Notes under the pieces: generated by a model
The model's database searches: none
The model's input: only the letters and a program-made list of their open reading frames with translations
What the model was told of the DNA's origin: nothing
Shown: piece by piece, positions 1 through 14,997 of the stretch
Position numbering within the stretch: position 1 is the stretch's first letter
Layout of the letters: every line of letters starts with the position of its first letter
Origin: a virus
Direction: 5' to 3' (one strand)
DNA length: 15,376 bases
UHGV virus genome: UHGV-0041029
Position numbers and translations under genes: made by a program

Positions 1-49
1 CACATGTAGGTTAGCCTCTTACGTGCCGAAAGGCAAGGAGAAGCAGGCT

Positions 50-205
50 ATGAAGCAGCAAAAGGCGATGTTAATCGCCCTGATCGTCATCTGTTTAACC
101 GTCATAGTGACGGCACTGGTAACGAGGAAAGACCTCTGCGAGGTGCGAATCCGAACCGGCCAGACGGAGGTCGCTGTCTTCACAGCTTACGAACCTGAGG
201 AGTAA
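50..205 (+). CDS. hokD: Hok/Gef-family type I toxin (small membrane-depolarising peptide), HokD/RelF-like
   Basis: 51-aa product MKQQKAMLIALIVICLTVIVTALVTRKDLCEVRIRTGQTEVAVFTAYEPEE has the Hok signature: basic N-terminus, single TM helix, conserved Cys and acidic tail. The ORF track starts at 23 but the Hok-length protein begins at the internal ATG at 50. Assignment is from recollection of the Hok family, not a search. Confidence 0.8.
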   Translation: MKQQKAMLIALIVICLTVIVTALVTRKDLCEVRIRTGQTEVAVFTAYEPEE

Positions 206-274
206 GAGACCCGGCGAGGGAGAAATCCCTCGCCACCTCTGATGTGGCAGGCATCCTCAACGCACCCGCACTTA

Positions 275-300
275 ACCCGCTTCGGCGGGTTTTTGTTTTT
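275..300 (+). terminator. Rho-independent terminator after the hok-like gene
   Basis: Stem acccgc (275-280), loop ttcg, stem gcgggt (285-290), followed by tttttgttttt. A perfect 9-bp hairpin with a GAAA tetraloop (213-234, ggcgaggga-gaaa-tccctcgcc) lies just upstream, resembling hok mRNA 3' fold-back elements. Confidence 0.65.
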
Positions 301-421
301 ATTTTCAACGCGTTTGAAGATCTGGACGGTGCCGGAATAGAATCAAAAATACTTAAGTAGCGCGCAGGGATAAGAGGGATGGTCCCTTAAAGGGGAGAGC
401 TAATTATCCGGAAGGATTCTG

Positions 422-673
422 ATGATGAACATCGAAGAACTGCGTAAAATTTTTTGTGAAGATGGCCTCTATGCTGTGTGCGTTGAAAATGGAAATCTTG
501 TTAGTCATTACCGCATTATGTGTTTGCGAAAGAATGGGGCTGCGTTAATTAATTTTGTGGATGGTCGAGTGACAGACGGATTTATCTTGCGCGAAGGTGA
601 GTTTGTCACTTCATTACAGGCACTGAAAGAGATCGGAATAAAAGCAGGCTTTTCAGCTTTTGCAGAAGAATAA
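422..673 (+). CDS. rem: Small prophage protein of unknown function, Rem-like
   Basis: 83-aa ORF with purine-rich region (ggaagg) upstream of ATGATG. Length and position (downstream of hok, upstream of the DUF968 gene) match my recollection of rem in the Qin prophage. Function unknown. Confidence 0.6.
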   Translation: MMNIEELRKIFCEDGLYAVCVENGNLVSHYRIMCLRKNGAALINFVDGRVTDGFILREGEFVTSLQALKEIGIKAGFSAFAEE

Positions 674-739
674 ACTCATCTACAATCTTGCGCGGGGCTG
701 AACTCCCGCTGAGTAACACCGTGCCACCGGAGAAAACCG

Positions 740-1018
740 ATGGCACGCAACGTAAAATATTACAATTCTGATAATTCGCCCGTTCTTGCCTGCACGCACG
801 AGCGGTATTCTCACGCATTCAAGTCTGAATGGTTCCAGCACCCTCCATGCACTGAAGAGCAGGCTGAATGGATAATTCAGTGTTACCGCAGGCGCGGATA
901 CGAGGTTAAGAAAGCTCTTAGTCTCGACTACCGTCACTGGATAATCTCAGTCAGATTGCCTTACTCCGAACGCCCACCGCGTCCGTCCCGTACATTCCAG
1001 CAACGCATCTGGAGGTAA
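740..1018 (+). CDS. Hypothetical protein (92 aa), translationally coupled to the downstream DUF968 gene
   Basis: GGAG at 727-730 sits 9 nt before the ATG at 740. The stop at 1016-1018 is one base before the GTG start of the next gene, and a GGAGG inside its 3' end serves that gene as RBS. No family recognised. Confidence 0.4.
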   Translation: MARNVKYYNSDNSPVLACTHERYSHAFKSEWFQHPPCTEEQAEWIIQCYRRRGYEVKKALSLDYRHWIISVRLPYSERPPRPSRTFQQRIWR

Positions 1019-1019
1019 C

Positions 1020-2069
1020 GTGCGGGTATTACTTCGACCTGTTCTGGTACCGGAACTCGGGCTGGTGGTCGTTAAGCCGGGCCGTGAATCCATGCCGGTA
1101 TTCCACAATACCCGGGTACTGGTGGAGCCGGAACCGAAAAGCATGCGTAATCTGCCGTCCGGGGTCGTTCCTGCCGTTCGCCAGCCGCTGGTGGAAGACA
1201 AAACATTGCTGCCGTTTTTCAGTAACGCACGGGTAATTCGTGCTGCTGGTGGTGCTGGTGCATTGTCTGACTGGCTGTTGCGCCATATTAAATCCTGCCA
1301 GTGGCCACACGGCGATTATCATCACAGCGAAACCGTTATTCACCGTTATGGTACCGGCGCAATGGTGTTGTGCTGGCACTGCGACAACCAGCTGCGTGAC
1401 CAGACATCCGAATCACTCGAGCAACTTGCTCATCAAAACCTGTCAGCATGGATGATTGACGTCATCGGTCACGCAATAAGCGGTACGCAGGAGCGTGAAT
1501 TATCTCTGGCTGAATTATCCTGGTGGGCGGTCCGCAATCAGGTGGCGGACGCGCTACCGGAAGCGGTATTACGTCGCTCGCTGGGATTACCAGCGGAAAA
1601 AAACTGCTCGGTGTACCGCGAAAGCGACATCGTACCGGGAGAGCAGACCGCCACCAGCATATTGAAACAGCGCACAAAAAATCTTGCACCGTTGCCTCAC
1701 GCCCACCAGCAACAAAACCCATCACAGGAAAAGACGGTGGTAAGCATCACCGTTGATCCAGAGTCTCCGGAATCTTTCATGAAGCTGCCTAAACGTCACC
1801 GTTGGGTTAAGGAGAAATACACACGCTGGGTTAAGACACAGCCGTGTGCTTGCTGCGGTATGCCAGCCGACGATCCGCATCATCTGATTGGTCACGGGCA
1901 GGGCGGAATGGGAACCAAAGCACATGATCTCTTTGTGTTGCCTTTGTGCAGAAAGCATCACGACGAGTTGCATACGGATACCGTGGCATTTGAAGAGAAG
2001 TATGGCTCCCAACTGGAGCTGATTTTTCGATTTATCGATCGCGCGCTGGCAATTGGTGTGCTGGCCTAA
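1020..2069 (+). CDS. ydfU: DUF968-family prophage protein with C-terminal HNH-like Cys/His motif, YdfU-like
   Basis: 349-aa ORF with GTG start. C-terminus carries CACCG...[10 protein letters not shown]...[17 protein letters not shown], a CxxC plus His-rich pattern typical of HNH/DUF968 proteins. Length matches Qin ydfU as recalled. Confidence 0.75.
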
Positions 2070-2086
2070 TTTTGTGGAGTAAGTTG

Positions 2087-2464
2087 ATGCGTGATATTCA
2101 GATGGTTCTTGAGCGTTGGGGGGCATGGGCGGCTAATAATCATGAAGATGTGACCTGGTCGTCCATTGCCGCCGGTTTTAAGGGATTAATTCCTTCAAAA
2201 GTAAGATCTCGTCCGCAATGCTGTGACGATGACGCGATGATCATTTGTGAATGTATGGCTCGCCTGAAAAAAAACAACAGCGATTTACATGATTTATTGG
2301 TGGACTATTATGTCGGCGGCATGACTTTTATGGCGCTTGCACGTAAGCATGGGCGATCTGATTGTTGGGTTGGCAGGATGCTCCAGAAAGCTGAGGGCGT
2401 AGTGGAGGGCATGCTGATGGTGTTGGATCTCCGATTGGAGATGGATGCTGATTGTTCGAAATAA
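2087..2464 (+). CDS. Putative late-gene antitermination protein Q-like (short Phage_antitermQ-type)
   Basis: 125 aa from the ATG at 2087, with GGAG 7 nt upstream; the track ORF starts at TTG 2072. Position directly downstream of DUF968 and upstream of a terminator and the lysis genes is the canonical Q slot. Cys cluster ([12 protein letters not shown]) and a helix-turn-helix-like C-terminus. Family assignment is by recollection only. Confidence 0.55.
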
Positions 2465-2562
2465 TTAAAGGAAAAGTTGCTGTCTGATTTTCATTAGTCT
2501 AACATTTTAAATGTTGGAATCGCAACGTAGTTATTATCATATAACAGCTTGTTTCCTGATTT

Positions 2563-2593
2563 AGCCAGCCTCCCCAAAGGCTGGTTTTTTTCT
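2563..2593 (+). terminator. Rho-independent terminator downstream of the Q-like gene (candidate tR'-like)
   Basis: Stem ccagcc (2565-2570), loop tccccaaa, stem ggctgg (2579-2584), then a run of 8 T. Lies between the convergent Q-like and lipocalin genes. The - strand reading lacks a U tract, so it acts mainly on + strand transcripts. Confidence 0.65.
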
Positions 2594-2619
2594 AATAAGT
2601 ATCATTTCGGGTGGGGATT

Positions 2620-3144
2620 TTATTGTTTAACCCATAATAGTTCATTGACATTGAATCCCAACTTTTGAGCGGTACGCACATAGTCTGCTTTTACATTATC
2701 TGGAATAGTTTGGGTCCTTGCCAGAATCCATAGGTATTCTCTGTTCGGACCACTGATAAGAGCATACTTATACTCATCATCCAGCTTGATTACATTATAA
2801 CCACCATAGAAGGGGCCAAAAAACGAAACTTTCAACGCTGCAGTTTTAGTATCTCCAGTAAAGTATGCTTTACCTTCGCTCTCGCTCCATTTGTTTTTCG
2901 TTGGATCGTATCCACGGTTAAGTACGCGAATCCCTCCGTCGTTCCGTTTTTCATAAGTAGCGCTGATCTGTTCCAGACCACGTTCGAACCAGTTCTCGAG
3001 GCGAGCTATTTCATACCATTTTCCGAGGTAGCGGTTGGCGTCAAAATTTGTAATCGGCTGCACACCTTTAGGTGGTGTCGGGGCCTTACATGCTATAAGA
3101 GTGAAAGAGAGTGCAATGCCAGTCAACACAGGCCATAACTTCAT
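2620..3144 (-). CDS. blc: Bacterial lipocalin Blc-like outer-membrane lipoprotein
   Basis: 174 aa. N-terminal signal with lipobox (FTLIAC-K). Lipocalin motifs shared with E. coli Blc: NFDANRYLGKWYEIAR, GKAYFTG, AALKVSFFGPFYGGYNVI, YLWILART. AGGA lies 8 nt upstream of the ATG on the - strand. Confidence 0.8.
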   Translation of the reverse strand: MKLWPVLTGIALSFTLIACKAPTPPKGVQPITNFDANRYLGKWYEIARLENWFERGLEQISATYEKRNDGGIRVLNRGYDPTKNKWSESEGKAYFTGDTKTAALKVSFFGPFYGGYNVIKLDDEYKYALISGPNREYLWILARTQTIPDNVKADYVRTAQKLGFNVNELLWVKQ

Positions 3145-3336
3145 AATAAATCCTGTACTTTTGATAGTTGAGAGTAAGTATGAAAGATAGATGAGTACGA
3201 CCGATCACTTAAAGAACTTTCCTACTATATTAGGAATAGTCAATAACAGAAAAATTGTCAGTGATGAAGCCAGAAAGGCAATTTAGTCCGTGCACTACAA
3301 AGTTTATGTGTTAATGAATTAGTCAAGGGGGAGGAA

Positions 3337-4296
3337 ATGATAAAAAAACCTGTGATTGGGATCAGCGGTTGTTTGGGCGGTTCTGCTGTTCGTTTTGATG
3401 GTGGTCACAAAAGAGATGACTTTTTAATGGACAAATTAGTGGAATGGGTAACATTCAGACCAGTATGTCCGGAAATGGCTATAGGGCTGCCAGTTCCGCG
3501 TCCTGCTCTACGACTTGTGCGCTCGAAGCAAGGAAATATACGGATGTGTTTCAGCCACGACCAGAATGAGGATGTGACAGAGAGAATGACAGAGTTTAGT
3601 CGTTCTTATATGGACAAATTAAAGGATGTATCGGGGTTTGTGGTTTGTGCTAAATCTCCCAGCTGTGGCATGGAGCGCGTGCGTGTCTATGATGAAAATG
3701 GTAATCGAGGTCGTAAAGATGGAGTGGGACTATTTACGAGCACTTTGATGGAAAAGTTTTCCTGGCTACCGGTTGAAGAGGATGGGCGATTACATGATCC
3801 AGTGCTTCGTGAGAATTTTATTGAAAGAGTTTTTGCTTTGCATGAGCTCAATCACCTTTACAAGGAGAAATTATCAAGAAGAGAGTTATTAGCTTTTCAT
3901 AGTCGTTATAAGCTTCAGTTGTTGGCGCATAGCCAGGCAGGCTATAAAGATATGGGACCATTTGTGGCTGCAATACACGAGTGGGCGGACCTTGAATCAT
4001 ACTTTGAGGTGTATCGTGATAATCTGATGGCGATTCTCAAAAAACCAGCATCACGTAAAAATCACACGAATGTGCTGATGCATATACAGGGGTATTTTAG
4101 TAATTACTTAAGTACACGCCAGCGTAAAGAGTTGAGCGAGGTTATACTTAACTATCGCTTTGGCACATTGCCTCTTCTTGCGCCGTTGACTCTGCTGAAG
4201 CATTATCTGGGTGAGTATCCTAATGATTACTTGCTTACACAGAATTACTTCGATCCCTATCCGGAAGAACTGGCTCTAAGACTGATGGTGAATTAA
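3337..4296 (+). CDS. DUF523 (TudS-like thio-nucleobase desulfidase domain) fused to DUF1722 (YbgA-like); RudS-like putative tRNA 4-thiouridine desulfidase
   Basis: 319 aa, strong RBS gggggagg before the ATG. N-terminal half has Cys in the pattern expected for the TudS [4Fe-4S] ligands (GISGC at 12, PVCPE at 44, VVCAKSPSCG at 104/110). C-terminal half resembles YbgA/DUF1722. Domain calls are by recollection. Confidence 0.65.
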   Translation: MIKKPVIGISGCLGGSAVRFDGGHKRDDFLMDKLVEWVTFRPVCPEMAIGLPVPRPALRLVRSKQGNIRMCFSHDQNEDVTERMTEFSRSYMDKLKDVSGFVVCAKSPSCGMERVRVYDENGNRGRKDGVGLFTSTLMEKFSWLPVEEDGRLHDPVLRENFIERVFALHELNHLYKEKLSRRELLAFHSRYKLQLLAHSQAGYKDMGPFVAAIHEWADLESYFEVYRDNLMAILKKPASRKNHTNVLMHIQGYFSNYLSTRQRKELSEVILNYRFGTLPLLAPLTLLKHYLGEYPNDYLLTQNYFDPYPEELALRLMVN

Positions 4297-4702
4297 CTGT
4301 ATGCGATATCATCTGAAAGTGATGAGTTCCTGTATGCAGGATATTTACAATCGTAAAAACTACGCTATGATGCTCATAGTATCAGTTTTTATAAAAATCC
4401 TGTTCACGCTAAAGAAAACATTGAGATGCAATTTAATGTTGGTAAACATACCAGCCCCAAACGATTTTATTCAATCTGTTTTTATATGAAGATATTTCAA
4501 GTGAATATTAAGAGCATATAATATTATTATTGCACGCAGCTATTATAATATAACAGATTAGTTTAATGATTTGTTTTTTGTGAGTTAAACACATGGTTTT
4601 ATAGTTGTGATGCAATGAGATTTTCCTTATTGTTGAACTGGCGAATATTGATTTTCCACCTATACTTACCTGGTGTAACCCCAATGATATCAGGTGGATA
4701 AT

Positions 4703-5416
4703 ATGCCATACATATGTTCTATCATTTTGGTGTTGAACTCGTTTGGTGTCCGAATTGGTAAAGAAGATATTTTGTTTAAAAAAGGAAATGCTGTCCTCAT
4801 TGAATACAATTTAAAAGATCTTTTTTCGTCAAATACAGATCATCTAATGATCGTAGATGTTGAGGAGAAAACAGTTAATGATTTCTTTAAAAACTACACA
4901 CTCTCACCTTTTTCTGTAAGAAGGTTTTATCCGTCATACTTGATAGTAGAATGTGAAGATTTTTCATTGTTAAAGAACTTGGTTGCATGCTTGAATTGTG
5001 ATAGCAAAACCGTGGATGTAGTTAGAAATCAAATATCACTTGCATGTCTTGCTGTCTTATCTTCAGAGAAAATAGTGCAAAGTTTTTTGTTCGGAAGTCT
5101 TAATAGCTTAGGTTGTAAAGTTAAGGCTATTATTCACTCGGATATCTCAGCGTCATGGAGACTTTGTGATATATCTTCAAGATTATATATGAGCGAGAGT
5201 TTGTTAAAAAGAAAATTAAAAGACGAAGGATTATCGTTTAGTAAATTAATTCTTGAAGAACGAATGATGATGGCGCAAAGATTATTGATCTACAGTAACC
5301 ATACTGTCGGCAAGGTGGCGGGAATATGCGGGTATGACAATGCATCATATTTTGTAAGTGTTTTTAGAGGATATTTTGGTGTGCCTCCGCACCAATATTT
5401 ATCAAGATTTTCTTAG
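4703..5416 (+). CDS. AraC/XylS-family transcriptional regulator, GadX/AppY/YdeO-like
   Basis: C-terminal double-HTH AraC signature (WRLCDISSRLYMSESLLKRKLKDEGLSFSKLI ... GYDNASYFVSVFRGYFGVPPHQY). Gene and upstream 400 bp are visibly AT-rich. Start is probably the ATG at 4703 (aggtgg upstream); the track ORF starts at GTG 4694. Confidence 0.8.
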   Translation: MPYICSIILVLNSFGVRIGKEDILFKKGNAVLIEYNLKDLFSSNTDHLMIVDVEEKTVNDFFKNYTLSPFSVRRFYPSYLIVECEDFSLLKNLVACLNCDSKTVDVVRNQISLACLAVLSSEKIVQSFLFGSLNSLGCKVKAIIHSDISASWRLCDISSRLYMSESLLKRKLKDEGLSFSKLILEERMMMAQRLLIYSNHTVGKVAGICGYDNASYFVSVFRGYFGVPPHQYLSRFS

Positions 5417-5482
5417 AAGATATGATGTGATGGCATTTTATAAAGTTATTTTTTGAAGTGTAAGATTATACGATATTTTTAG

Positions 5483-5516
5483 CTACGCCAGAATAATTGC
5501 TGGCGTTTTTCTTTTT
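5483..5516 (+). terminator. Rho-independent terminator after the AraC-family gene
   Basis: Stem acgccag (5485-5491), loop aataattg, stem ctggcgt (5500-5506), followed by tttttcttttt. Confidence 0.6.
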
Positions 5517-5606
5517 GAATAGATGTTCGGGCCTTACGCTAATGTAACTTCTTTCCTTCTTCGAACCAAACCGTGTACACCATCCGTTATCTGCGGAGGT
5601 GAGGCT

Positions 5607-5822
5607 ATGAAATCCATGGATAAGTTAACAACGGGCATCGCCTACAGCACCTCTGCAGGCAGTGCTGGCTACTGGTTTTTACAGTTGCTCGATAAAGTCA
5701 CGCCCTCACAGTGGGCGGCAATAGGTGTATTGGGTAGTCTGGTATTTGGCATGCTGACGTATCTGACAAATCTTTATTTCAAGATTAAAGAAGACAGGCG
5801 TAAGGCTGCGAGAGGAGAGTAA
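5607..5822 (+). CDS. essQ: Class II holin / pinholin (phage 21 S21-like) with dual-start motif
   Basis: 71 aa beginning MKSMDK (Met1 and Met4, the S21 antiholin/holin dual start), with ggaggtgagg RBS. Two TM segments and a basic C-terminus ([13 protein letters not shown]). The track ORF at 5523 is an in-frame N-terminal extension without RBS support. Confidence 0.85.
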
Positions 5823-5826
5823 TCCA

Positions 5827-6134
5827 ATGACTCAAGACTATGAACTGGTTGTGAAAGGAGTCCGTAATTTTGAGAATAAAGTTACGGTAACTGTAGCCTT
5901 ACAGGACAAAGAACGCTTTGACGGTGAAATTTTTGGCCTGGATGTCGCCATGGACCGTGTTGAAGGAGCTGCGCTGGAGTTTTATGAGGCAGCAGCCAGA
6001 ATGAGCGTCCGGCAAGTCTTCCTGGAAGTAGCAGAAAAATTGTCAGAAAAAGTTGAGTCTTATCTGCAGCATCAGTACTCCTTTAAGATTGAAAATCCTG
6101 CCAATAAGCACGAGCGTCCTCATCATAAATATCT

Positions 6135-6138
<4 letters not shown>
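5827..6138 (+). CDS. ydfR: Lysis-cassette protein of unknown function, YdfR-like
   Basis: 103 aa, RBS gagaggag. Wedged between holin and endolysin, with its stop overlapping the endolysin start (ATGA). Length and position match ydfR of Qin as recalled. Confidence 0.7.
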
Positions 6139-7162
<1,024 letters not shown>

Positions 7163-7407
7163 ATTAATATTAAATCGGATTATTTTTAGCGCTGAATGTG
7201 AAATTTAAATAAAAAGGACTCTTCCATGAGTCAAAATCCTTGAAATCTTAAGGGTAAGATAAAAGGTCATTAGACAGAATGACACGTTTTATTAATAAAT
7301 AAAGCTATTGTTTCATTCGTGTGTTTTTCTTTACAAAAGTAATCCTTGCTATGGTTGGTTAATCATGCGTTAATGGTGTTCTGGTTTGTTACAAAATTAT
7401 CTGAAGC

Positions 7408-7430
7408 AGTCATTGTTATAATTTTATTAT
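7408..7430 (+). promoter_or_regulatory. Candidate extended -10 promoter (TGnTATAAT) for the cold-shock gene with long 5' UTR
   Basis: tgttataat at 7414-7422 inside an AT-rich leader about 100 nt before the cspI-like start. CspA-family genes typically have long structured 5' UTRs. No convincing -35 seen. Confidence 0.3.
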
Positions 7431-7522
7431 TTGTACCTCTTGAGATTTCCTTGTTGGTTTTTCTCTCTGATATTTTTTTTCGGACCATTCTGCCCAAGGG
7501 CTAACTTCTTCAAAAGGTAATA

Positions 7523-7738
7523 ATGATGTCTAACAAAATGACTGGTTTAGTGAAATGGTTTAACCCTGAAAAAGGTTTTGGTTTCATCACGCCGAAAGAT
7601 GGTAGCAAAGATGTGTTTGTGCATTTCTCAGCTATTCAGAGCAACGATTTCAAAACGTTAACTGAGAATCAGGAAGTCGAATTTGGTATTGAGAACGGAC
7701 CTAAAGGCCCTGCAGCTGTTCATGTAGTGGCACTTTGA
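7523..7738 (+). CDS. cspI: CspA-family cold-shock protein
   Basis: [23 protein letters not shown]...VFVHFSAIQ carries the RNP1/RNP2 cold-shock domain motifs. ATGATG start, so the true start may be 7526 giving 70 aa. Symbol given from Qin-like context (followed by ynfN-like and gnsB-like genes); paralogue identity is not certain. Confidence 0.85.
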
Positions 7739-7942
7739 GGTAGAAAATATTACAAACCATATTCACTTTAGATGCCCGTGTTGCCATGGTTCTCAGTATA
7801 GAACATCATCTTTTGATGTTTCTGACAGAAATCCTTTCGGGGCAAAATGTATCTTTTGTAAATCAATGATGATTACATTTGATAATATTTCACAATACTT
7901 AAATGTTAGCCATCTGTCGTTAGATTTAAGAAAGTGAAAATG

Positions 7943-7966
7943 AAGGCTCCTTCGGGAGCTTTTTTG
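7943..7966 (+). terminator. Rho-independent terminator
   Basis: Stem ggctcc (7945-7950), loop ttcg, stem ggagct (7955-7960), followed by tttttt. Confidence 0.55.
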
Positions 7967-8084
7967 CTTAGTGTCTAGTCGATGGATACTCACATATTAC
8001 GGTAACATTATGAAAAAAATAATAGTTTTTTTTAACTCTGAACCAGCAATGGTAGTGCCAGTGATGACCGGAGTTAACACCATC

Positions 8085-8240
8085 ATGCGTGAATATCCAA
8101 ATGGCGAAACAACACACCTCACTGTAATGGCTGCAGGGTTTCCATCTCTGACCGGAGATCATAAAGTCATTTATGTAGCAGCGGATCGACATGTAACTTC
8201 AGAAGAAATTCTGGAAGCAGCAATGAGACTCTTGAATTGA
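8085..8240 (+). CDS. ynfN: Small prophage protein, YnfN-like
   Basis: 51-aa product from the ATG at 8085, with GGAG 10 nt upstream. Sits between the cspI-like and gnsB-like genes as in Qin. The same frame is open back to 7971, so a longer product cannot be excluded. Confidence 0.45.
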   Translation: MREYPNGETTHLTVMAAGFPSLTGDHKVIYVAADRHVTSEEILEAAMRLLN

Positions 8241-8412
8241 TTTGATTCTAATGCATTGATAATAAATGATAATCATCTTTATCTGTTTGTGTGAAATTTA
8301 GACCGTCGTATGTTGATTATTGCGATGTTTCATCTTATCTTTTATACGTTTGCTCCATATAATTGACACTACTGTGTACCAGGACAGTCATAACAGACTA
8401 AAAGAGGAAATG

Positions 8413-8586
8413 ATGAACATTGAAGAGTTAAAAACAAAAACAGAAGCAGATATTTCTGAATATATAACAAAAAAAATCATTGAGCTTAAGAAAAAGACCG
8501 GGAAAGAAGTTACCAGTATCCAGTTTACTGCACGGGAAAAAATGACTGGTCTTGAAAGCTATGATATCAAGATTGATTTAATCTAG
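8413..8586 (+). CDS. gnsB: GnsA/GnsB-family small protein
   Basis: 57-aa product MNIEELKTKTEADISEYITKKIIELKKKTGKEVTSIQFTAREKMTGLESYDIKIDLI matches the GnsA/GnsB family. aagagg RBS 5 nt before the ATG at 8413; the track ORF from 8320 is an unsupported extension. Confidence 0.8.
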   Translation: MNIEELKTKTEADISEYITKKIIELKKKTGKEVTSIQFTAREKMTGLESYDIKIDLI

Positions 8587-8650
8587 CATGTTTATAGTAT
8601 TAGCATCAATTTCTCATCAGATGCTATTCAACAATACAAATTACCCATAA

Positions 8651-8676
8651 ACCTCGTTTTTACGGGGTTTTGTTAT
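8651..8676 (+). terminator. Rho-independent terminator after the gnsB-like gene
   Basis: cctcgt-tttt-acgggg hairpin (one G-U pair) followed by ttttgtt. Confidence 0.45.
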
Positions 8677-8881
8677 ATTTAAACATTACCGAATAGATAT
8701 AAATCTCGATTGTCGATGGTATTGGTTGTGTGACAATACCTAGTCTTTCCGGTATGCCTGAAGAGAATACAAACGACAGATTATGTAAGGGAAACGCGCT
8801 GAAACTTTCACTCTTTCATGCTGAGTGATTTGACGTTATATTTTTAGCCGCAAGTGAAGAGCAAACGAATGGAGCGACAAA

Positions 8882-9088
8882 ATGCATAAAGATCAATACA
8901 CTGATGCCCCCTCCCAGGAGCAGGTTCGTGTAAAAACTATGCTTAATAGCACCATTTCGATGGGTTACCCGGATGTTGTAATTGCATGTATAGAACATCA
9001 AGTATCTCTGGAAGCATTCAGGGCAATTGAGGCCGCGTTAGTAAAGCACGATAAGAATACGAAGGATTATTCCCTGGTGGTTGACTGA
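8882..9088 (+). CDS. Hypothetical protein (68 aa)
   Basis: ORF with GGAG 7 nt upstream of the ATG. No family recognised. Confidence 0.4.
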
Positions 9089-9439
9089 TCACCATAACTG
9101 CTAACCATTCTGACCATTTCACAAGTGACAGAGTCAATATCGTATTCTGTCACTGTAAGGCTAATACAGTACTGCAATTCAACTACAGCAATGCCTCGTA
9201 TTTAGGTGAATTTACAATATCGTCCAGTTCGGATGCCGGCTGCATTTCTGAAGATAAGGCATTTCGGTTCGCGTATTTTCCCCTCATGCTCGTCAGTCCT
9301 GCGCGTAGTAAGAAACAGGACACTCACACTAATTTGTGTGGGCATGCTGTGATGTCCTTCTGAATTATCCCCATGCCATTATGTAAAGCTCTGTTTCAGA
9401 TGCTCGTCACGGTTGTCAGGCTGTCGGGTCCTCCCAGTG

Positions 9440-9480
9440 GGGGTCCCTGCCACGGGGCGGGAGCGTCGCGGAAAAAGACT
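9440..9480. other. Candidate cos site (cosN-like, lambda-type cohesive end)
   Basis: ccacgGGGCGGGAGCGTCGCGG (9451-9471) resembles the lambda cosN context acgGGGCGGCGACCTCGCGG. It lies about 195 bp upstream of the small-terminase start, close to the roughly 190 bp spacing in lambda as I recall it. The lambda sequence is quoted from memory. Confidence 0.4.
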
Positions 9481-9649
9481 AGTTTTTGCATTTCCATGGC
9501 GGCGGCAGCATGTTTGGTAATTTATTGATAATTAAAAGTTATTTCTCTTTTCACCTGTACAATATTTTTTCTCCCTGTTATTAGACCAGTTTGCAATTAA
9601 TTGAAATATATAAATAAACCTGATTTTCACCTGCCAGATGGAGTTGCTT

Positions 9650-10177
9650 ATGTCAAATGTGAGCGGGATCGGTGATGCTTATTACTGGAGTGTTTTTAAA
9701 ATCGCCGAGGCCTTTGGGCTTCACCGGGACACAGTAAAAAAACGGCTCCTCGCGGCCAACACTCCTGTGGCTGCGACTGTCAGGGGGAACCCCGTTTACG
9801 CCCTGCAGCATGTCGGGCCCGCCCTGTTTAGTGTGAAGCATGAGGCAGCAGACTCTGTTCATGATCCATCCCGTATGGAGCCGAAAGAGAGAAAAGACTG
9901 GTACCAGTCTGAAAATGAAAGGATCAAGCTGGAAAAGGAGCAGCGAAAACTCATCCCAGTTGATGAAGTAGTCATCGTCTATTCGTCCATGAGAAAGGCT
10001 GTCGTCCAGGTTCTGGAGACAATTCCGGATGTTCTTGAACGCGATTGCGCCCTGACTCCTCAGGCCGTCGGCGTTGTACAGCAGGCCATTGATGACCTGC
10101 GATACACTCTTCAGGAAAAATCCTACGAGGCTTGTGCTGCTGAATTAATTCCTGATGAGGAAGGAGAGAGTCTCTAG
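9650..10177 (+). CDS. Terminase small subunit (Nu1-like DNA-packaging protein)
   Basis: About 175 aa from the ATG at 9650 (GGAG 6 nt upstream). N-terminal HTH-like segment (YYWSVFKIAEAFGLHRDTVKKRL), acidic C-terminus, immediately upstream of and coupled to the large terminase. Family call from architecture and context. Confidence 0.65.
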   Translation: MSNVSGIGDAYYWSVFKIAEAFGLHRDTVKKRLLAANTPVAATVRGNPVYALQHVGPALFSVKHEAADSVHDPSRMEPKERKDWYQSENERIKLEKEQRKLIPVDEVVIVYSSMRKAVVQVLETIPDVLERDCALTPQAVGVVQQAIDDLRYTLQEKSYEACAAELIPDEEGESL

Positions 10178-10185
10178 GAGGAATA

Positions 10186-11919
10186 ATGGGTTTTTCATCA
10201 GCCCGAAATTTGGGAAGGGACATATCGGCAGGATTTTCCCCACCACGTCGCATGCCGATTTCGGAGGCTGTTAAAAAATTCATGCGTGTTCCCAAGGGGG
10301 CTGGTAACTCGGTGCCATGGGATCCTGAACTGACACCCTACATCATTGAGCCCATGAACTGCCTGGCATCGCGTGAATACGATGCGGTGATTTTTGTTGG
10401 TCCTGCGCGAACAGGGAAGACCATTGGTCTGATCGATGGATGGATTGTCTATACCATCGTTTGCGATCCTTCGGACATGCTCGTTGTGCAGATGACCGAA
10501 GATAAGGCCCGCGAGCATTCTAAAAAGCGCCTCGACAGAACGTTCAGAAGCAGTGCGGCGGTAAAGAAAAGAATGAGTCCACGTCGTAACGACAATAATG
10601 TCCATGATAAGACGTTCAGGGATGGCTCGTTCCTTAAAATTGGTTGGCCCTCGGTCAACATTATGTCGTCGTCGGATTACCGGTTTGTCGCCTTAACCGA
10701 TTACGACCGTTTTCCGGAGAATATCGACAGCGAGGGTGATGGTTTCTCCCTAGCCTCAAAACGTACCACCACATTTATGTCCGCCGGGATGACTCTGGTG
10801 GAGAGCTCGCCGGGACGTGACATCTGCGACAGCAAATGGCGACGTAAGTCGCCTCATGAAGCGCCACCGACGACTGGTATTCTTTCCCTTTACAATCGTG
10901 GTGACCGCCGCCGCTGGTACTGGCCATGTCCGCACTGCGGTGAATATTTTCAGCCAGCTATGGATGCCATGACCGGCTACCGTAATGAACCGGATCCCTT
11001 TAAAGCCAGTGAGGCGGCGTATCTACTTTGCCCGCACTGCAGCGGCATTATCACTGCGGAGAAAAAGCGTGAGCTCAATAGTGCAGGAGTCTGGTTACGT
11101 GAAGGTCAGGTCATTGATCGTAACGGCAACGTTTCCGGTGAACCGCGCCGCTCCCGTATCGCCAGTTTCTGGATGGAAGGGCCAGCTGCTGCGTATCAGA
11201 CCTGGGCGCAACTGGTTTACAAATTACTGACTGCAGAACAGGAGTATGAAGCGACAGGAAGCGAAGAAACACTCAGGGCGGTTATCAACACCGACTGGGG
11301 ATTACCTTATCTTCCTCGTGCCAGCATGGAGCAACGAAAAAGTGAACTGCTTGAGCAGCGGGCAGAGCCAGTTCCTTCCCGCAGTGTTCCGGATGGCGTT
11401 AATTTCCTTGTGGCGACAGTGGATGTGCAGGCGGGACGTCATCGCCGTTTTGTGGTTCAGGTAACGGGCTATGGCAGCCGTGGCGAACGCTGGATTATTG
11501 ATCGTTACAACATCACGCAGTCATTGCGCAGTGACTGCGACGGGGAGAGCCAGCGAATTGATCCGGCCAGCTATCCGGAAGACTGGGATGTCCTGCTGGG
11601 GAGCTGGTTTTACGACGAACTGACGTATGAAGAGCGGAGCAGTGACGGGAAATGGAGTAAGCCGGGTCGCGGTGCCAACGAAGCTTTTGACCTGATGGTG
11701 TATGCCGAGGCGCTGGTCATTCTGCATGGATACGAAAAGATCCGCTGGCCGGATGCACCGGAGTGGGCGAGCCGGGAAACCTGGCTGGAGTGTGTCCCGG
11801 ACAGTACCGAACCGTCACCCTCACCGGAGCCGGTATCCACGCCTGTTAAAAAACAAAAACGGAAGAAAACAGTAACTGACGATGTTAACCCCTGGCTGAC
11901 TTCCGGAGGATGGTTATGA
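10186..11919 (+). CDS. Terminase large subunit, lambda gpA family
   Basis: 577 aa. Walker A P-loop (VIFVGPARTGKT), Cys-rich motifs (WYWPCPHCGEYF and LLCPHCSGI) comparable to the lambda gpA CPHC region, and a C-terminal nuclease-type region. Confidence 0.85.
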   Translation: MGFSSARNLGRDISAGFSPPRRMPISEAVKKFMRVPKGAGNSVPWDPELTPYIIEPMNCLASREYDAVIFVGPARTGKTIGLIDGWIVYTIVCDPSDMLVVQMTEDKAREHSKKRLDRTFRSSAAVKKRMSPRRNDNNVHDKTFRDGSFLKIGWPSVNIMSSSDYRFVALTDYDRFPENIDSEGDGFSLASKRTTTFMSAGMTLVESSPGRDICDSKWRRKSPHEAPPTTGILSLYNRGDRRRWYWPCPHCGEYFQPAMDAMTGYRNEPDPFKASEAAYLLCPHCSGIITAEKKRELNSAGVWLREGQVIDRNGNVSGEPRRSRIASFWMEGPAAAYQTWAQLVYKLLTAEQEYEATGSEETLRAVINTDWGLPYLPRASMEQRKSELLEQRAEPVPSRSVPDGVNFLVATVDVQAGRHRRFVVQVTGYGSRGERWIIDRYNITQSLRSDCDGESQRIDPASYPEDWDVLLGSWFYDELTYEERSSDGKWSKPGRGANEAFDLMVYAEALVILHGYEKIRWPDAPEWASRETWLECVPDSTEPSPSPEPVSTPVKKQKRKKTVTDDVNPWLTSGGWL

Positions 11920-11960
11920 ATCAGAATGATATTGAAGCCATGATTCAGCGTTATGGGTGA
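11916..11960 (+). pseudogene. 5' stub (14 codons) of the gene that followed terminase, truncated by deletion
   Basis: ATG overlaps the terminase stop (ATGA), typical coupling for the next head gene. The frame stops after MNQNDIEAMIQRYG, where tape-measure homology begins in another frame. Confidence 0.3.
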
Positions 11961-12798
11961 TCAGCAGCGGCAGCGATATCAGGTACAACTGAGTCTTCGC
12001 CAGAAATACCAGCAACAGCTGGAGCAGTTGAGGCGGGATAGTGAGCAGAAAGGAATATATAACACGGATGACTACAGAAAGGCCGAGCAGGCGCTGACGG
12101 AGAGCCTGAACCGACAACTGAATGAGAATCGCCGTTACTGGCAACAGCTTGAAGTTGTGCAGGGTAACTGGAAAAACGGAGTCCTGCGTGCATTTCAGAA
12201 TTTTACCGTGGATGCAGATAATACGGCAGGAACAGCAGAACAGGTGTTCTCGTCAGCCTTCAGCAACATGGGAAATGGCCTAGCAACTTTTGTCACTACC
12301 GGCAAACTCAATTTCAAATCCTTCACCTCTTCTGTGCTGTCAGATATGGCGAAAATCCTGGCGCAGGCAACCATGATGAAATCGATAAAAGGGATTGGCA
12401 GTGTACTGGGATTTGATCTCAGCAGCCTTTCCCTGAATGCCAATGGGGGGATTTATCAGTCTGCTGATTTGAGTCGTTACAGTGGCACGGTGGTTAACCG
12501 TCCGACGTTTTTTGCTTTTGCAAAAGGCGCGGGTGTGATGGGGGAAGCGGGACCTGAAGCCATTCTGCCACTGCGTCGTGGTGCTGACGGTAAGCTGGGG
12601 GTTGTGGCGGATATTGGTGGTTCAGGTATGGCGATGTTTGCCCCGCAGTACAACATCGAGATCAATAACGATGGCACGAACGGGCAGATAGGTCCGGCTG
12701 CCCTGAAGGTGGTTTATGACCTCGGGAAAAAAGCGGCAGCGGACTTTATGCAACAGCAGGCCCGTGATGGTGGTCGGTTAAGTGGAGCATATCGGTAA
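11953..12798 (+). pseudogene. C-terminal fragment (about 280 aa) of a lambda-like tail tape measure protein (gpH)
   Basis: The C-terminus (NIEINNDGTNGQIGPAALKVVYD...ARDGGRLSGAYR) parallels the lambda gpH C-terminus (VINNDGTNGQIGPAALKAVYD...MRDGGLFSGGGR). The stop overlaps the gpM start (TAATG). No N-terminal 500+ aa present. Confidence 0.8.
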
Positions 12799-13127
12799 TG
12801 GAGACGTTTCACTGGAAAGTGCGCCCGGATATGAATGTGGTATCAGAGCCGAAAGTGGTGACAGTGAAGCTGGGCGATGGTTATGAACAGCGTCGTGCGG
12901 CGGGACTGAATAACCAGTTGTCGATTTACAGCGTGACGATACGTGTTCGTAAATGTGAACACCCATCTTTAAAAGCCTTTCTGGAACGGCACGGTGGCGT
13001 CCGCGCATTTCAGTGGACGCCACCTTATGACTGGAAGCCGATCAGGGTGGTTTGTCGTAAATGGTCGGCAAGCGTGGGGGCGCTGTGGGTAACCATAACG
13101 GCAGATTTTGAACAGGTCGTGGCATAG
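12798..13127 (+). CDS. Minor tail protein M (lambda gpM homologue)
   Basis: 109 aa, METFHWKVRPDMNVVSEPKVV...EFQWTPPYDWKPIRVVCRKWSA...DFEQVVA, collinear with lambda gpM and the same length. Confidence 0.85.
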   Translation: METFHWKVRPDMNVVSEPKVVTVKLGDGYEQRRAAGLNNQLSIYSVTIRVRKCEHPSLKAFLERHGGVRAFQWTPPYDWKPIRVVCRKWSASVGALWVTITADFEQVVA

Positions 13128-13136
13128 GAGGCCCTG

Positions 13137-13409
13137 ATGCAGGATATTTCACAGGAAACACATCATGAGACGACACGCCTCACTCAGTCAGCCCAGGTGG
13201 TGCTCTGGGAAATCGATCTGACCGAGGTAGGCGGGGATCGCTACTTTTTCTGTAATGAGCAGAACGAAAAAGGTGAGTCTGTCACCTGGCAGAGTCGGCA
13301 GTATCAGGCCTATCCCATTCAGGGGAGTGGATTTGAGATGAACGGCAAGGGCAGTGCTGCCCGTCCGACACTGACGGTCTCTAACCTGCACGGCATGATC
13401 ACCGGGATG
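13137..13409 (+). pseudogene. N-terminal fragment (about 91 aa) of minor tail protein L (lambda gpL homologue)
   Basis: MQDISQETHHETTRLTQSAQVVLWEIDLTEVGGDRYFFCNEQNEKGESVTWQSRQYQAYPIQGSGFEMNGKG...TLTVSNLHGMITGM matches the lambda gpL N-terminus. Homology stops near 13409; the open frame runs on to 13523 through unrelated sequence, which is gpJ read out of frame. Confidence 0.8.
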
Positions 13410-13876
13410 GGAATACCAACATCGCCGGTGTCACGGTGGTGTTCCGGGCTGGTGAGCAGGAGCAGACTCCGCCGGAGGGATTTGAATCCTCCGGCTCCGA
13501 GACGGTGTTGGGTACGGAAGTGAAATACGACACGCCGATCACCCGCGCCATCACGTCGGCAAACATCGACCGTCTGCGCTTTACCTTCGGTGTGCAGGCA
13601 CTGGTGGAAACCACCTCAAAGGGGGACCGGAATCCGTCGGAAGTTCGCCTGCTGGTTCAGATACAGCGTAATGGTGGCTGGGTGACGGAAAAAGACATCA
13701 CCATTAAGGGCAAAACCACCTCGCAGTATCTGGCCTCGGTGGTGGTGGATAACCTGCCGCCGCGCCCGTTTAATATCCGGATGCGCAGAATGACGCCGGA
13801 CAGCACCACAGACCAGCTGCAGAACAAAACGCTCTGGTCGTCATACACCGAAATCATCGATGTGAAACAGTGCTAT
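13409..13876 (+). pseudogene. Internal fragment of tail tip/host-specificity protein J (lambda gpJ, about residues 55-220)
   Basis: NTNIAGVTVVFRAGEQEQTPPEGFESSGSETVLGTEVKYDTPITR...[18 protein letters not shown] is near-identical to the lambda gpJ N-terminal region as recalled. It lacks the gpJ start and the C-terminal 900 or so residues. Confidence 0.8.
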
Positions 13877-14309
13877 TCCAGCTGGCTTCGTGGCTGTTTT
13901 CAACAGTGATGAGTCATCGTGGCATCTCGTTGAAGATCATCGGGGTAAAACGGTTTATGACGTGGCTTCCGGCGACGCGTTATTTATTTCTGAACTCGGC
14001 TCATTACCGGAAAATGTCACCTGGTTATCCCCGGAAGGGGAGTTTCAGAAGTGGAACGGCACAGCCTGGGTGAAAGATGCAGAAGCAGAAAAACTATTCC
14101 GGATCCGGGAGGCGGAAGAAACAAAAAACAGCCTGATGCAGGCAGCGAATGAGCATATTGCGCCACTTCAGGATGCTGTAGATCTGGAAATCGCAACGGA
14201 GGAAGAAAACTCGTTGCTGGAAGCCTGGAAAAAGTATCGGGTGTTGCTGAACCGTGTTAATACAACAACTGCACCGGATATTGAATGGCCAGTAGCACCT
14301 ATAGGGTAA
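13875..14309 (+). pseudogene. C-terminal fragment of tail fibre assembly protein (Tfa family)
   Basis: [67 protein letters not shown]... matches Tfa proteins (TfaQ/TfaE-like). Homology starts abruptly at the gpJ junction, so the N-terminal 50-60 residues are missing. An in-frame GTG/ATG could still allow a truncated product. Confidence 0.75.
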
Positions 14310-14425: not shown

Positions 14426-14902
14426 AGTACATAAACGTACAAAATGTGATGAAAGTAGAGTGGCGTAAGCCACTATATTAAGATATGACAATAGCGAACA
14501 AAAGTAAATAACATTTTATGGACGTTTAATTGTTAATTATAAAAACTAGAGTGCCCGATATTGTTTATCTTGCTTTAAAATAATGTACTCAAACCAAATT
14601 TTTGAGCTAAAAGCTCAAATAATATAAATGCAATGATAATGTTTAATAAGACAATTAGCTTGCTTTGTATTTTCATTTCGGAATACTGTTAAGTAACTTT
14701 GATGACCCTAACAATAGATCGGAATTTTCTTAGAGTCAATGGTCACTGTTTTTGTTTGCAAAGCAAATGTTTTGGTGGTTATAAGTTTTCCTAATATAGT
14801 CACCTATGCAACTTGTTCCGTGTGGAGATTAAAGGTTAAAATTTAATGCGAAGATGGAATTATAATATATTTTTTTATAATTAATTTAACCTTAACATCG
14901 TT

Positions 14903-14997
14903 GCTGGCGGCATGGAAGAAATATCGGGTCTTGCTGATATCGTGTTGGCACTTCCTTAGTGCGGTTATCGAATGGCCAGCTGTACCTGTGGGGTAAA
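14903..14997 (+). repeat. Degenerate second copy of the tfa 3' end (direct repeat of about 14217-14310)
   Basis: gcatggaagaaatatcgggtcttgctg...atcgaatggccagctgtacctgtggggtaa aligns with gcctggaaaaagtatcgggtgttgctg...attgaatggccagtagcacctatagggtaa at the end of the tfa fragment. The middle part is divergent. Confidence 0.5.

Follow-up and report, generated by a model that had tools for sequence, protein, structure and literature searches.

In a decayed lambdoid prophage of E. coli, the stub of a W-like head-tail joining gene runs straight into the part of a gpH-like tape measure gene (H) that encodes the last 281 residues. We set the probability at about 0.8 that the deletion junction between them, hereafter junction 1, was left behind when one illegitimate, microhomology-mediated event deleted 9,053 bp from a lambdoid prophage at ydfJ. 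The sequence analysed, which we call the window, is the whole 15,376-nt (15.4-kb) stretch of UHGV virus genome UHGV-0041029, and it lies at the E. coli Qin/ydfJ locus. The deletion would have run from W codon 13 to H codon 740/741 with the crossover in a shared TAT, and would in one step have taken away all head genes, those for the tail tube and its chaperones, and the part of H coding for residues 1-740. Since a near-identical intact relative exists, the microhomology is 3 bp long, foreign DNA is absent and the H-side site joins many partners, one illegitimate deletion is the simplest account.

Anatomy of the remnant and of junction 1

Nine complete E. coli genomes match the window at 99.7-99.8%, one block excepted. 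Their annotation lists hokD, rem, ydfU, the Q antiterminator, a lipocalin, YbgA, an HTH protein, essD, ydfR, rrrQ, rzpQ, cspI, ymcF, ynfN, gnsB, a DUF1441 protein (small terminase), a large terminase, tail fragments and tfa, followed by a truncated ydfJ and by ydfI. The Qin position is the 5' end of ydfJ, where prophage size ranges from 11 to 97 kb depending on the strain (PMC6379469). A cos end is found at about window position 9455, which aligns to base 1 of the linear genome of phage Tritos, upstream of an intact small-terminase-like gene (9638-10177, plus strand; DUF1441, Pfam PF07278). The cargo between the Q antiterminator and the lysis cassette (2620-5416) consists of the lipocalin gene, on the minus strand, and genes for a YbgA-family protein and an HTH protein, which we take not to be part of the K-12 Qin prophage. 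Rfam places a cspA thermoregulator (RF01766) at 7368-7784, in front of cspI, and IS009 (RF02111) at 14071-14269, inside the tfa gene, both above the gathering score.

When compared with phage genomes by megablast, window positions 9500-11954 match Tritos and cdtI at 99%, over the small and large terminase genes followed by a 70-aa 'Ad1'/W-like gene, and positions 11952-13875 match H, M, L and J of mEp460-like phages at 97-98%. The two sides of the junction thus have different phages as their best database matches, which would fit an assembly artefact, or a mosaic joint whose left arm came from a cdtI/Tritos-like phage and whose right arm came from an mEp460-like one. Either origin is extremely improbable, however, as the intact prophage of E. 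coli LT2-3 has both arms collinear at 99.8-100% identity and many assemblies made independently (NCBI, ENA, Logan) contain the junction. This prophage (NZ_CM141449.1), which occupies the same chromosomal locus, is the best reference, with an identity of 99.7% over window positions 1-11598, 100% over 11595-11954 and 98.4% over 11952-13410. It is otherwise intact and carries an IS1 with a 9-bp target duplication, for which window positions 14831-14839 represent the empty site.

The W stub is a 14-codon ORF on the plus strand (11916-11960) that translates as MNQNDIEAMIQRYG followed by a stop, and its start forms an ATGA overlap with the end of the large terminase (TerL) ORF at 10186-11919. Its first 13 codons are identical to those of the 70-aa W-like gene of Tritos ('Ad1')/cdtI and of the LT2-3 prophage, and are followed by GGG TGA, read out of frame from H. 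The first-pass annotation had counted 14 remaining codons of this gene; that number is right for the ORF, whereas the native codons kept are 13 of 70. With a caret marking the joint, junction 1 reads ...CAGCGTTAT^GGGTGATCAG..., and the parental sequences are ...CGTTAT^ACGG for W and ...GGGTAT^GGGT for H. As these agree only in TAT, which belongs to W codon 13 on one side and to H codon 740/741 on the other, the crossover is confined to positions 11952-11954, so that a breakpoint first judged locatable within about 40 bp is indeed locatable, at the finer resolution of 3 bp. The flanks differ from LT2-3 at 0 of 360 bp to the left and 1 of 454 bp to the right, and the junction holds no inserted bases, IS, att-like repeat or long repeat, the shared bases being TAT only.

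Between the two junction flanks LT2-3 has 9,053 bp that are absent from the window. This block begins with the rest of W, the portal, a ClpP-protease/major-capsid fusion, a DUF2190 cement protein and a Gifsy-2-type head-tail protein, and continues with a Z-like protein, the U and V (tube) proteins, the chaperones G and T and H codons 1-740. A tblastn search of the window with all LT2-3 late proteins detected no portal, protease/capsid, cement, head-tail, Z, U, V, G, T, I, K, Lom or stf, and found as remaining pieces W 1-13, H 741-1021, a complete M, L 1-92, J 56-212 and tfaQ 50-193. The absence of portal and capsid matches is what the first-pass annotation had anticipated from such a search, and the loss of portal, protease, capsid, head-tail and tube genes that it described is confirmed. 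A sheath gene, which it had counted among the losses, was never there to lose, because the tails are of the siphovirus type. Alignment to an intact relative, which it had suggested as a way of defining the breakpoint and any microhomology, has supplied both, namely the TAT at 11952-11954 and the 9,053 bp missing relative to LT2-3.

The H' ORF (11953-12798, plus strand) starts at the native Met741 and covers the final 281 codons of a lambda-type tape-measure gene whose full product has 1021 aa, with 100% amino acid identity to LT2-3 H. It carries the Tape_meas_lam_C domain (PF09718, E = 2.4e-23, H' residues 71-145) and aligns to residues 566-851 of lambda gpH in PDB 8iyk; only residues 741-1021 of LT2-3 H being present, the N-terminal chaperone-binding and coiled-coil ruler regions are missing. 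The jump of homology into the last 280 or so residues of a tape measure was thus read correctly from the start, the tblastn match covering H 741-1021 at 100% amino acid identity with PF09718 inside it. Pfam, tblastn and the gpH alignment all identify the 281-aa ORF as a truncated tape measure and not as a complete protein of some other family. At window position 12282, H' has a synonymous base that is unique to the window and contig L010 among the sequences compared; it differs in LT2-3, 569R4, FDAARGOS_1077 and ECCWS199 and in the window-type contigs L008, L009, L011, L012, L013 and L016.

The ATG of Met741 overlaps the stop codon of the stub (ATGGGTGA). Translational reinitiation of H' from this overlap is conceivable from the sequence; no Shine-Dalgarno sequence precedes the ATG, and a promoter scan found no promoter-like site within about 240 bp of junction 1. 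Most likely H' and the downstream M, L' and J' are inert leftovers, although the retained ATG and its overlap with the stop codon of the stub are a point against an inert H', some translation and function of which are conceivable.

The large terminase (GpA family; 10186-11919, plus strand) was first taken to be apparently full-length, which is wrong. Pfam and alignments to Tritos and LT2-3 reveal an in-frame deletion of 122 codons (366 bp) whose junction, with GCTG as microhomology, lies at 11595-11598, and TerL has 577 aa in the window as against 699 aa in LT2-3. The ATPase domain PF05876 is complete (profile positions 2-247 of 247). The nuclease domain PF20454 (GpA_nuclease) is interrupted, profile positions 1-123 of 294 being followed by a second stretch; in LT2-3 TerL (699 aa) both domains are complete. 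All window-type contigs share the 577-aa product. A terL breakpoint common to the window and ECCWS199 was considered and rejected, as ECCWS199 continues for 106 bp further and its alignment to the window ends at 11598 only because of the window's own deletion.

Downstream of H', the gpM-like minor tail gene (12798-13127, plus strand) is complete, with full-length PF05939 and 100% amino acid identity to LT2-3 M. Of the gpL-like gene, according to Pfam and tblastn, only the first 92 codons are left (13137-13412, plus strand). Junction 2 (13406-13410, a 5-bp overlap) joins L codon 92 to J codon 56 with 1,943 bp missing, and leads into a gpJ fragment of residues 56-212 with an FNIII-A domain (13406-13875, plus strand; Pfam, tblastn). 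Junction 3 (13874-13875) joins J codon 212 to codon 50 of a tfaQ-like tail fibre assembly gene with 6,951 bp missing; residues 50-193 of the latter remain (13875-14309, plus strand; Pfam, tblastn). The late-region loss totals 18.3 kb relative to LT2-3. Positions 14898-14993 hold a second, diverged C-terminal fragment of a tail-fibre-assembly gene, with 56% amino acid identity to tfaQ residues 162-193, which is probably a relic of an invertible tail-fibre segment; the invertase gene pinQ, present in relatives, is absent from the window.

Distribution of the allele and its sisters at the Qin locus

Exact junction 1 was found in none of 5,426 complete E. coli genomes, nor do these contain the window's set of four junctions. 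The terminase end and this part of H lie less than 800 bp apart in only two of the 5,426, both with other joints. Among NCBI draft genomes, ENA metagenomes and Logan assemblies, however, at least 24 contigs encode the identical 281-aa H'. All ten loci fetched from this set (L008-L017) have an identical junction 1 and, as far as each contig reaches, the gene order 577-aa TerL, H', M, L', J', tfa'; four extend into ydfJ-ydfI, and a 9,424-bp stretch of one of the ten, contig QRYU01000025.1 of GCA_003464415.1, matches the window without a difference. Since an identical junction occurs in so many contigs, it is neither an assembly artefact nor a private mutation, and represents a heritable allele. 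A search for the exact junction in contigs representing one genome per species gave no match, which is uninformative, as E. coli has only one representative in that set. One ENA scaffold (L009, LIUN22-1...scaffold_657, 10137-12846) has the right end of the remnant followed by an integrase, DUF1233 and ydfE in place of ydfJ-ydfI, which could be a mis-join at an att repeat, a tandem or excised form, or a different arrangement.

Other remnants at the locus have different joints. The EF7-18-58 type (L003 14572-14850, and eight similar complete genomes) is 99.7-99.8% identical to the window elsewhere, and its TerL is cut at the equivalent of window position 11573 and joined to a 46-codon stf fragment and an intact tfa; neither this allele nor that of the window is derivable from the other. 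The FDAARGOS type has a portal::H and an H::stf joint, and the ECCWS199 type an additional TerL::W deletion. As these lineages decayed by different routes, prophage grounding at the Qin locus happened repeatedly.

A recurrent breakpoint in the tape-measure gene

The H-side end of junction 1 is not random, nor is it confined to the window allele. At the same locus, FDAARGOS_1077 has portal codon 64 joined to H, ...GCCCGTTA^TGGGTGATC, with the H-side end as in the window, and this portal::H joint is found in ten further complete genomes, one metagenome contig and one IMG/VR contig. H' and H residues 591-890 were each used to query protein databases, and the many fusion proteins retrieved were traced to their contigs, where junctions were read at the DNA level. 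The T-A-T at H codon 740/741 is a junction for at least 13 partners, of which nine leftward and three rightward ones are in E. coli and one is in Salmonella. Where the C-terminal part of H is kept (right-retaining junctions), the left partners are W codon 13 (CGTTAT^GGG), portal codon 64 (CGTTA^TGGG), H codon 297 (GGCGGTAT^GGG), TerS codon 75 (CCGTATGG^GTGA), TerL codon 100 (CTCGTT^ATGGG), T codon 78 (ACGGGAT^GGG), TerL at about codon 370 (GCGGTTAT^GGG), an HTH_36 protein (CAGGGT^ATGGG) and a partner in P0080 (CCGGAT^ATGGG). Where H up to Gly740 is kept instead (left-retaining junctions), it is joined to stf, J and K. The Salmonella junction, GCCCGT^ATGGGCGATCAG, connects codon 81 of a Z-like gene with the counterpart of Met741 in an H allele that is only 56% identical. 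Every crossover lies within the three bases T-A-T, which overlap the Met741 codon or directly precede it, with 1-6 bases of microhomology; a break at GGGT^ATGG fits every junction whose original left-hand sequence is known, and seven partners form in-frame fusions with the C-terminal part of H.

As an unbiased set, we scanned IMG/VR with the right flank of H and obtained 120 loci, of which 86 have a full H, 30 an H cut by the end of the locus and 4 a truncated H. Two of these four break at the T-A-T, one of the portal::H type and one with an in-frame internal deletion of H that joins about codon 297 to codon 741. Three other positions in H' recur as well: G857/K858 (window 12303/12304, H' codons 117/118) with five partners, V891/L892 (12405/12406, H' codons 151/152) with six left and at least five right partners, and V921/N922 (12495/12496, H' codons 181/182), at GTT^AAC, with several. 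V891/L892 is used in both polarities, and it is there that H' of FDAARGOS_1077 is joined to stf. Breakpoints in H that were used only once were also seen, so the recurrence is not simply a search bias. No tape-measure deletion hotspot, nor a single 3-base site with many partners, was found described in the literature.

The portal::H joint bears on whether junction 1 arose in one step. An older deletion from portal codon 64 to H codon 741, of the type still carried by FDAARGOS_1077 and 10 other complete genomes, might have come first, followed by a 365-bp deletion between CGTTAT 6-bp repeats that produced the W'::H' joint. The identical H-side end of the two junction types is in keeping with such a history, as are left sides that both end in CGTTA(T) and the common chromosomal locus; moreover, the presence of CGTTAT both at W codons 12-13 and at the portal::H joint means that the anatomy itself permits two steps, a counter-point to a single deletion. 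Such a sequence of events is nonetheless unlikely, as the window flanks are of the LT2-3 type right up to the junction and lack the FDAARGOS-type SNPs at 11921, 11933 and 12054, every portal::H carrier found has the other SNP type with host flanks diverged by 1.3-1.5%, and the H site joins 11 other partners, so that shared descent is not needed for the coincidence. Relative to the window type, portal::H carriers have 8 mismatches in 360 bp and 8 in 454 bp, scattered and not patchy, and ydfJ-ydfI is 1.3-1.5% divergent. Given this difference in SNP background and host flank, the portal::H and window-type deletions are independent events, and we return to a single deletion as the preferred origin of junction 1.

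We tentatively suggest that in lambdoid prophages of E. coli and Salmonella the tape-measure gene holds a few nucleotide-precise fragile sites that are preferred end points of prophage-grounding deletions, although we consider this somewhat less probable than its negation. On the same tentative footing, the strongest of them would be GTGGGT^ATGGGT at Gly740/Met741, the others being G857/K858, V891/L892 and V921/N922, and breakage or a replication template switch might be far commoner there than elsewhere. The recurrent site sits between two tandem hexamers, GTGGGT^ATGGGT in E. coli and ATGGGG^ATGGGC in Salmonella, and forms the centre of a 13-base mirror repeat, GTGGGTATGGGTG. A DNA hairpin is predicted there with the arms GATATCGC and GCGATATC and the TAT in its apical loop (-11.9 kcal/mol, z = -2.2, a weak signal), and the W partner site is likewise in a predicted hairpin loop (z = -2.4). 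Seven of 12 breakpoints are in predicted hairpin loops compared with 21% of background positions, a lead only, as the test was chosen post hoc. The left partners resemble C-G-K-(K)-T^AT, a likeness that is not separable from microhomology to GGGT^AT. Fragility at these sites could be caused by hairpin-loop or repeat structure, or by a nuclease or nickase, so far unrecognised, that attacks prophage DNA at a specific sequence.

Among site-specific recombinases and nucleases (Int, invertase, HUH, restriction, homing), no cognate enzyme was identified. A cytosine at -4 of the left partners, the signature of type IA topoisomerases, was present at six of six junctions and failed in three added later. 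No Chi that could protect the right end occurs in H' in the required orientation, and the site does not resemble a phage cos end. An IS insertion at the site was looked for in IMG/VR as an H left flank ...GGGTAT followed by foreign DNA, and none was found, with a pattern that is blind to breaks after GGGT or GGGTA, which occur in draft assemblies. Restriction sites (BclI, EcoRV, EcoP15I, HpaI) and a type I-E PAM/protospacer were rejected by sequence inspection alone, as cut positions or retained sequences do not fit. The protein P0140 of one Logan contig is an H fragment whose reading frame shifts by -1 within the GGG run, precisely at the recurrent site (…ATV VWVISSGSD…); this points either to slippage at the tandem hexamers or to an error in sequencing.

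Alternatively, the position of the junction could have been shaped by selection, remnants being kept when the C-terminal tape-measure module is still expressed, either by termination-reinitiation at Met741 (ATGGGTGA) or through in-frame fusions; the benefit could lie in translation of downstream tail-tip genes, or in hindering infecting lambdoid phages as they assemble tails or deliver their DNA. Consistent with this, the Met741 ATG is kept in every right-retaining junction, the stop of the stub overlaps it in both out-of-frame types, the in-frame fusions involve seven partners, and H' corresponds roughly to the C-terminal third of lambda gpH (residues 566-851). We regard selection as quite an improbable cause, however, since any upstream in-frame end point would do, which leaves the nucleotide precision unexplained, since the site is also used in the opposite polarity, with loss of the C-terminal module, and since the ATG has no Shine-Dalgarno sequence before it.

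Origin of junction 1 and comparison with known systems

Under our preferred reading of junction 1 as the scar of one deletion, the H site would be a fragile point whose broken or stalled end was rejoined wherever 1-6 bases of microhomology were available, probably by end joining or template switching. Three accompanying deletions (terL, -366 bp; L-to-J, -1,943 bp; J-to-tfa, -6,951 bp) would, together with it, have turned an LT2-3-like prophage into a non-inducible remnant without particle production, in which Q and the lysis, cold-shock and cargo genes upstream stayed in place. We infer both the single step and the joining mechanism from the sequences compared, among which, as a further counter-point, no intermediate was found that would order the four deletions. 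Should grounding deletions indeed stop at only a few exactly defined positions, prophages would not decay by a random walk, and the cause of the recurrence, be it DNA structure, a nuclease or selection acting on the C-terminal module of the tape measure, would be testable with simple constructs. Recurrent sites could also serve as marks for counting independent domestication events in enterobacterial genomes.

By itself, junction 1 is an ordinary, textbook scar of prophage decay and adds one more remnant allele to the Qin locus. With Qin (Kim) of K-12 the window shares the integration locus, a truncated ydfJ beside ydfI, and the gene set hokD, rem, ydfU, Q, essD/ydfR/rrrQ/rzpQ, cspI, ynfN and gnsB; in contrast to Qin, cos, TerS and a crippled TerL are retained in the window allele, together with pieces of H, M, L, J and tfa. 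Compared with lambda gpH (853 aa; PDB 8iyk/8iyl/8k35), H' shares the Tape_meas_lam_C domain and aligns to gpH 566-851, whereas its parent tape measure has 1021 aa, of which only the last 281 residues are kept in the window. RecA-independent illegitimate recombination, or alternative end joining, in E. coli produces large deletions at microhomologies of a few base pairs, and hotspots for it exist in the formation of lambda-bio transducing phages. The junctions described here resemble that process in their 1-6 bp of microhomology, absence of inserted DNA, large deletions and hotspots, and differ from it in that one site of three bases serves at least 13 partners, in either polarity and in alleles from two species. 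To the first-pass annotation the analysis adds the precise breakpoint, the terminase deletion and, in E. coli and Salmonella prophages, a recurrent, bidirectional and nucleotide-precise site in H.
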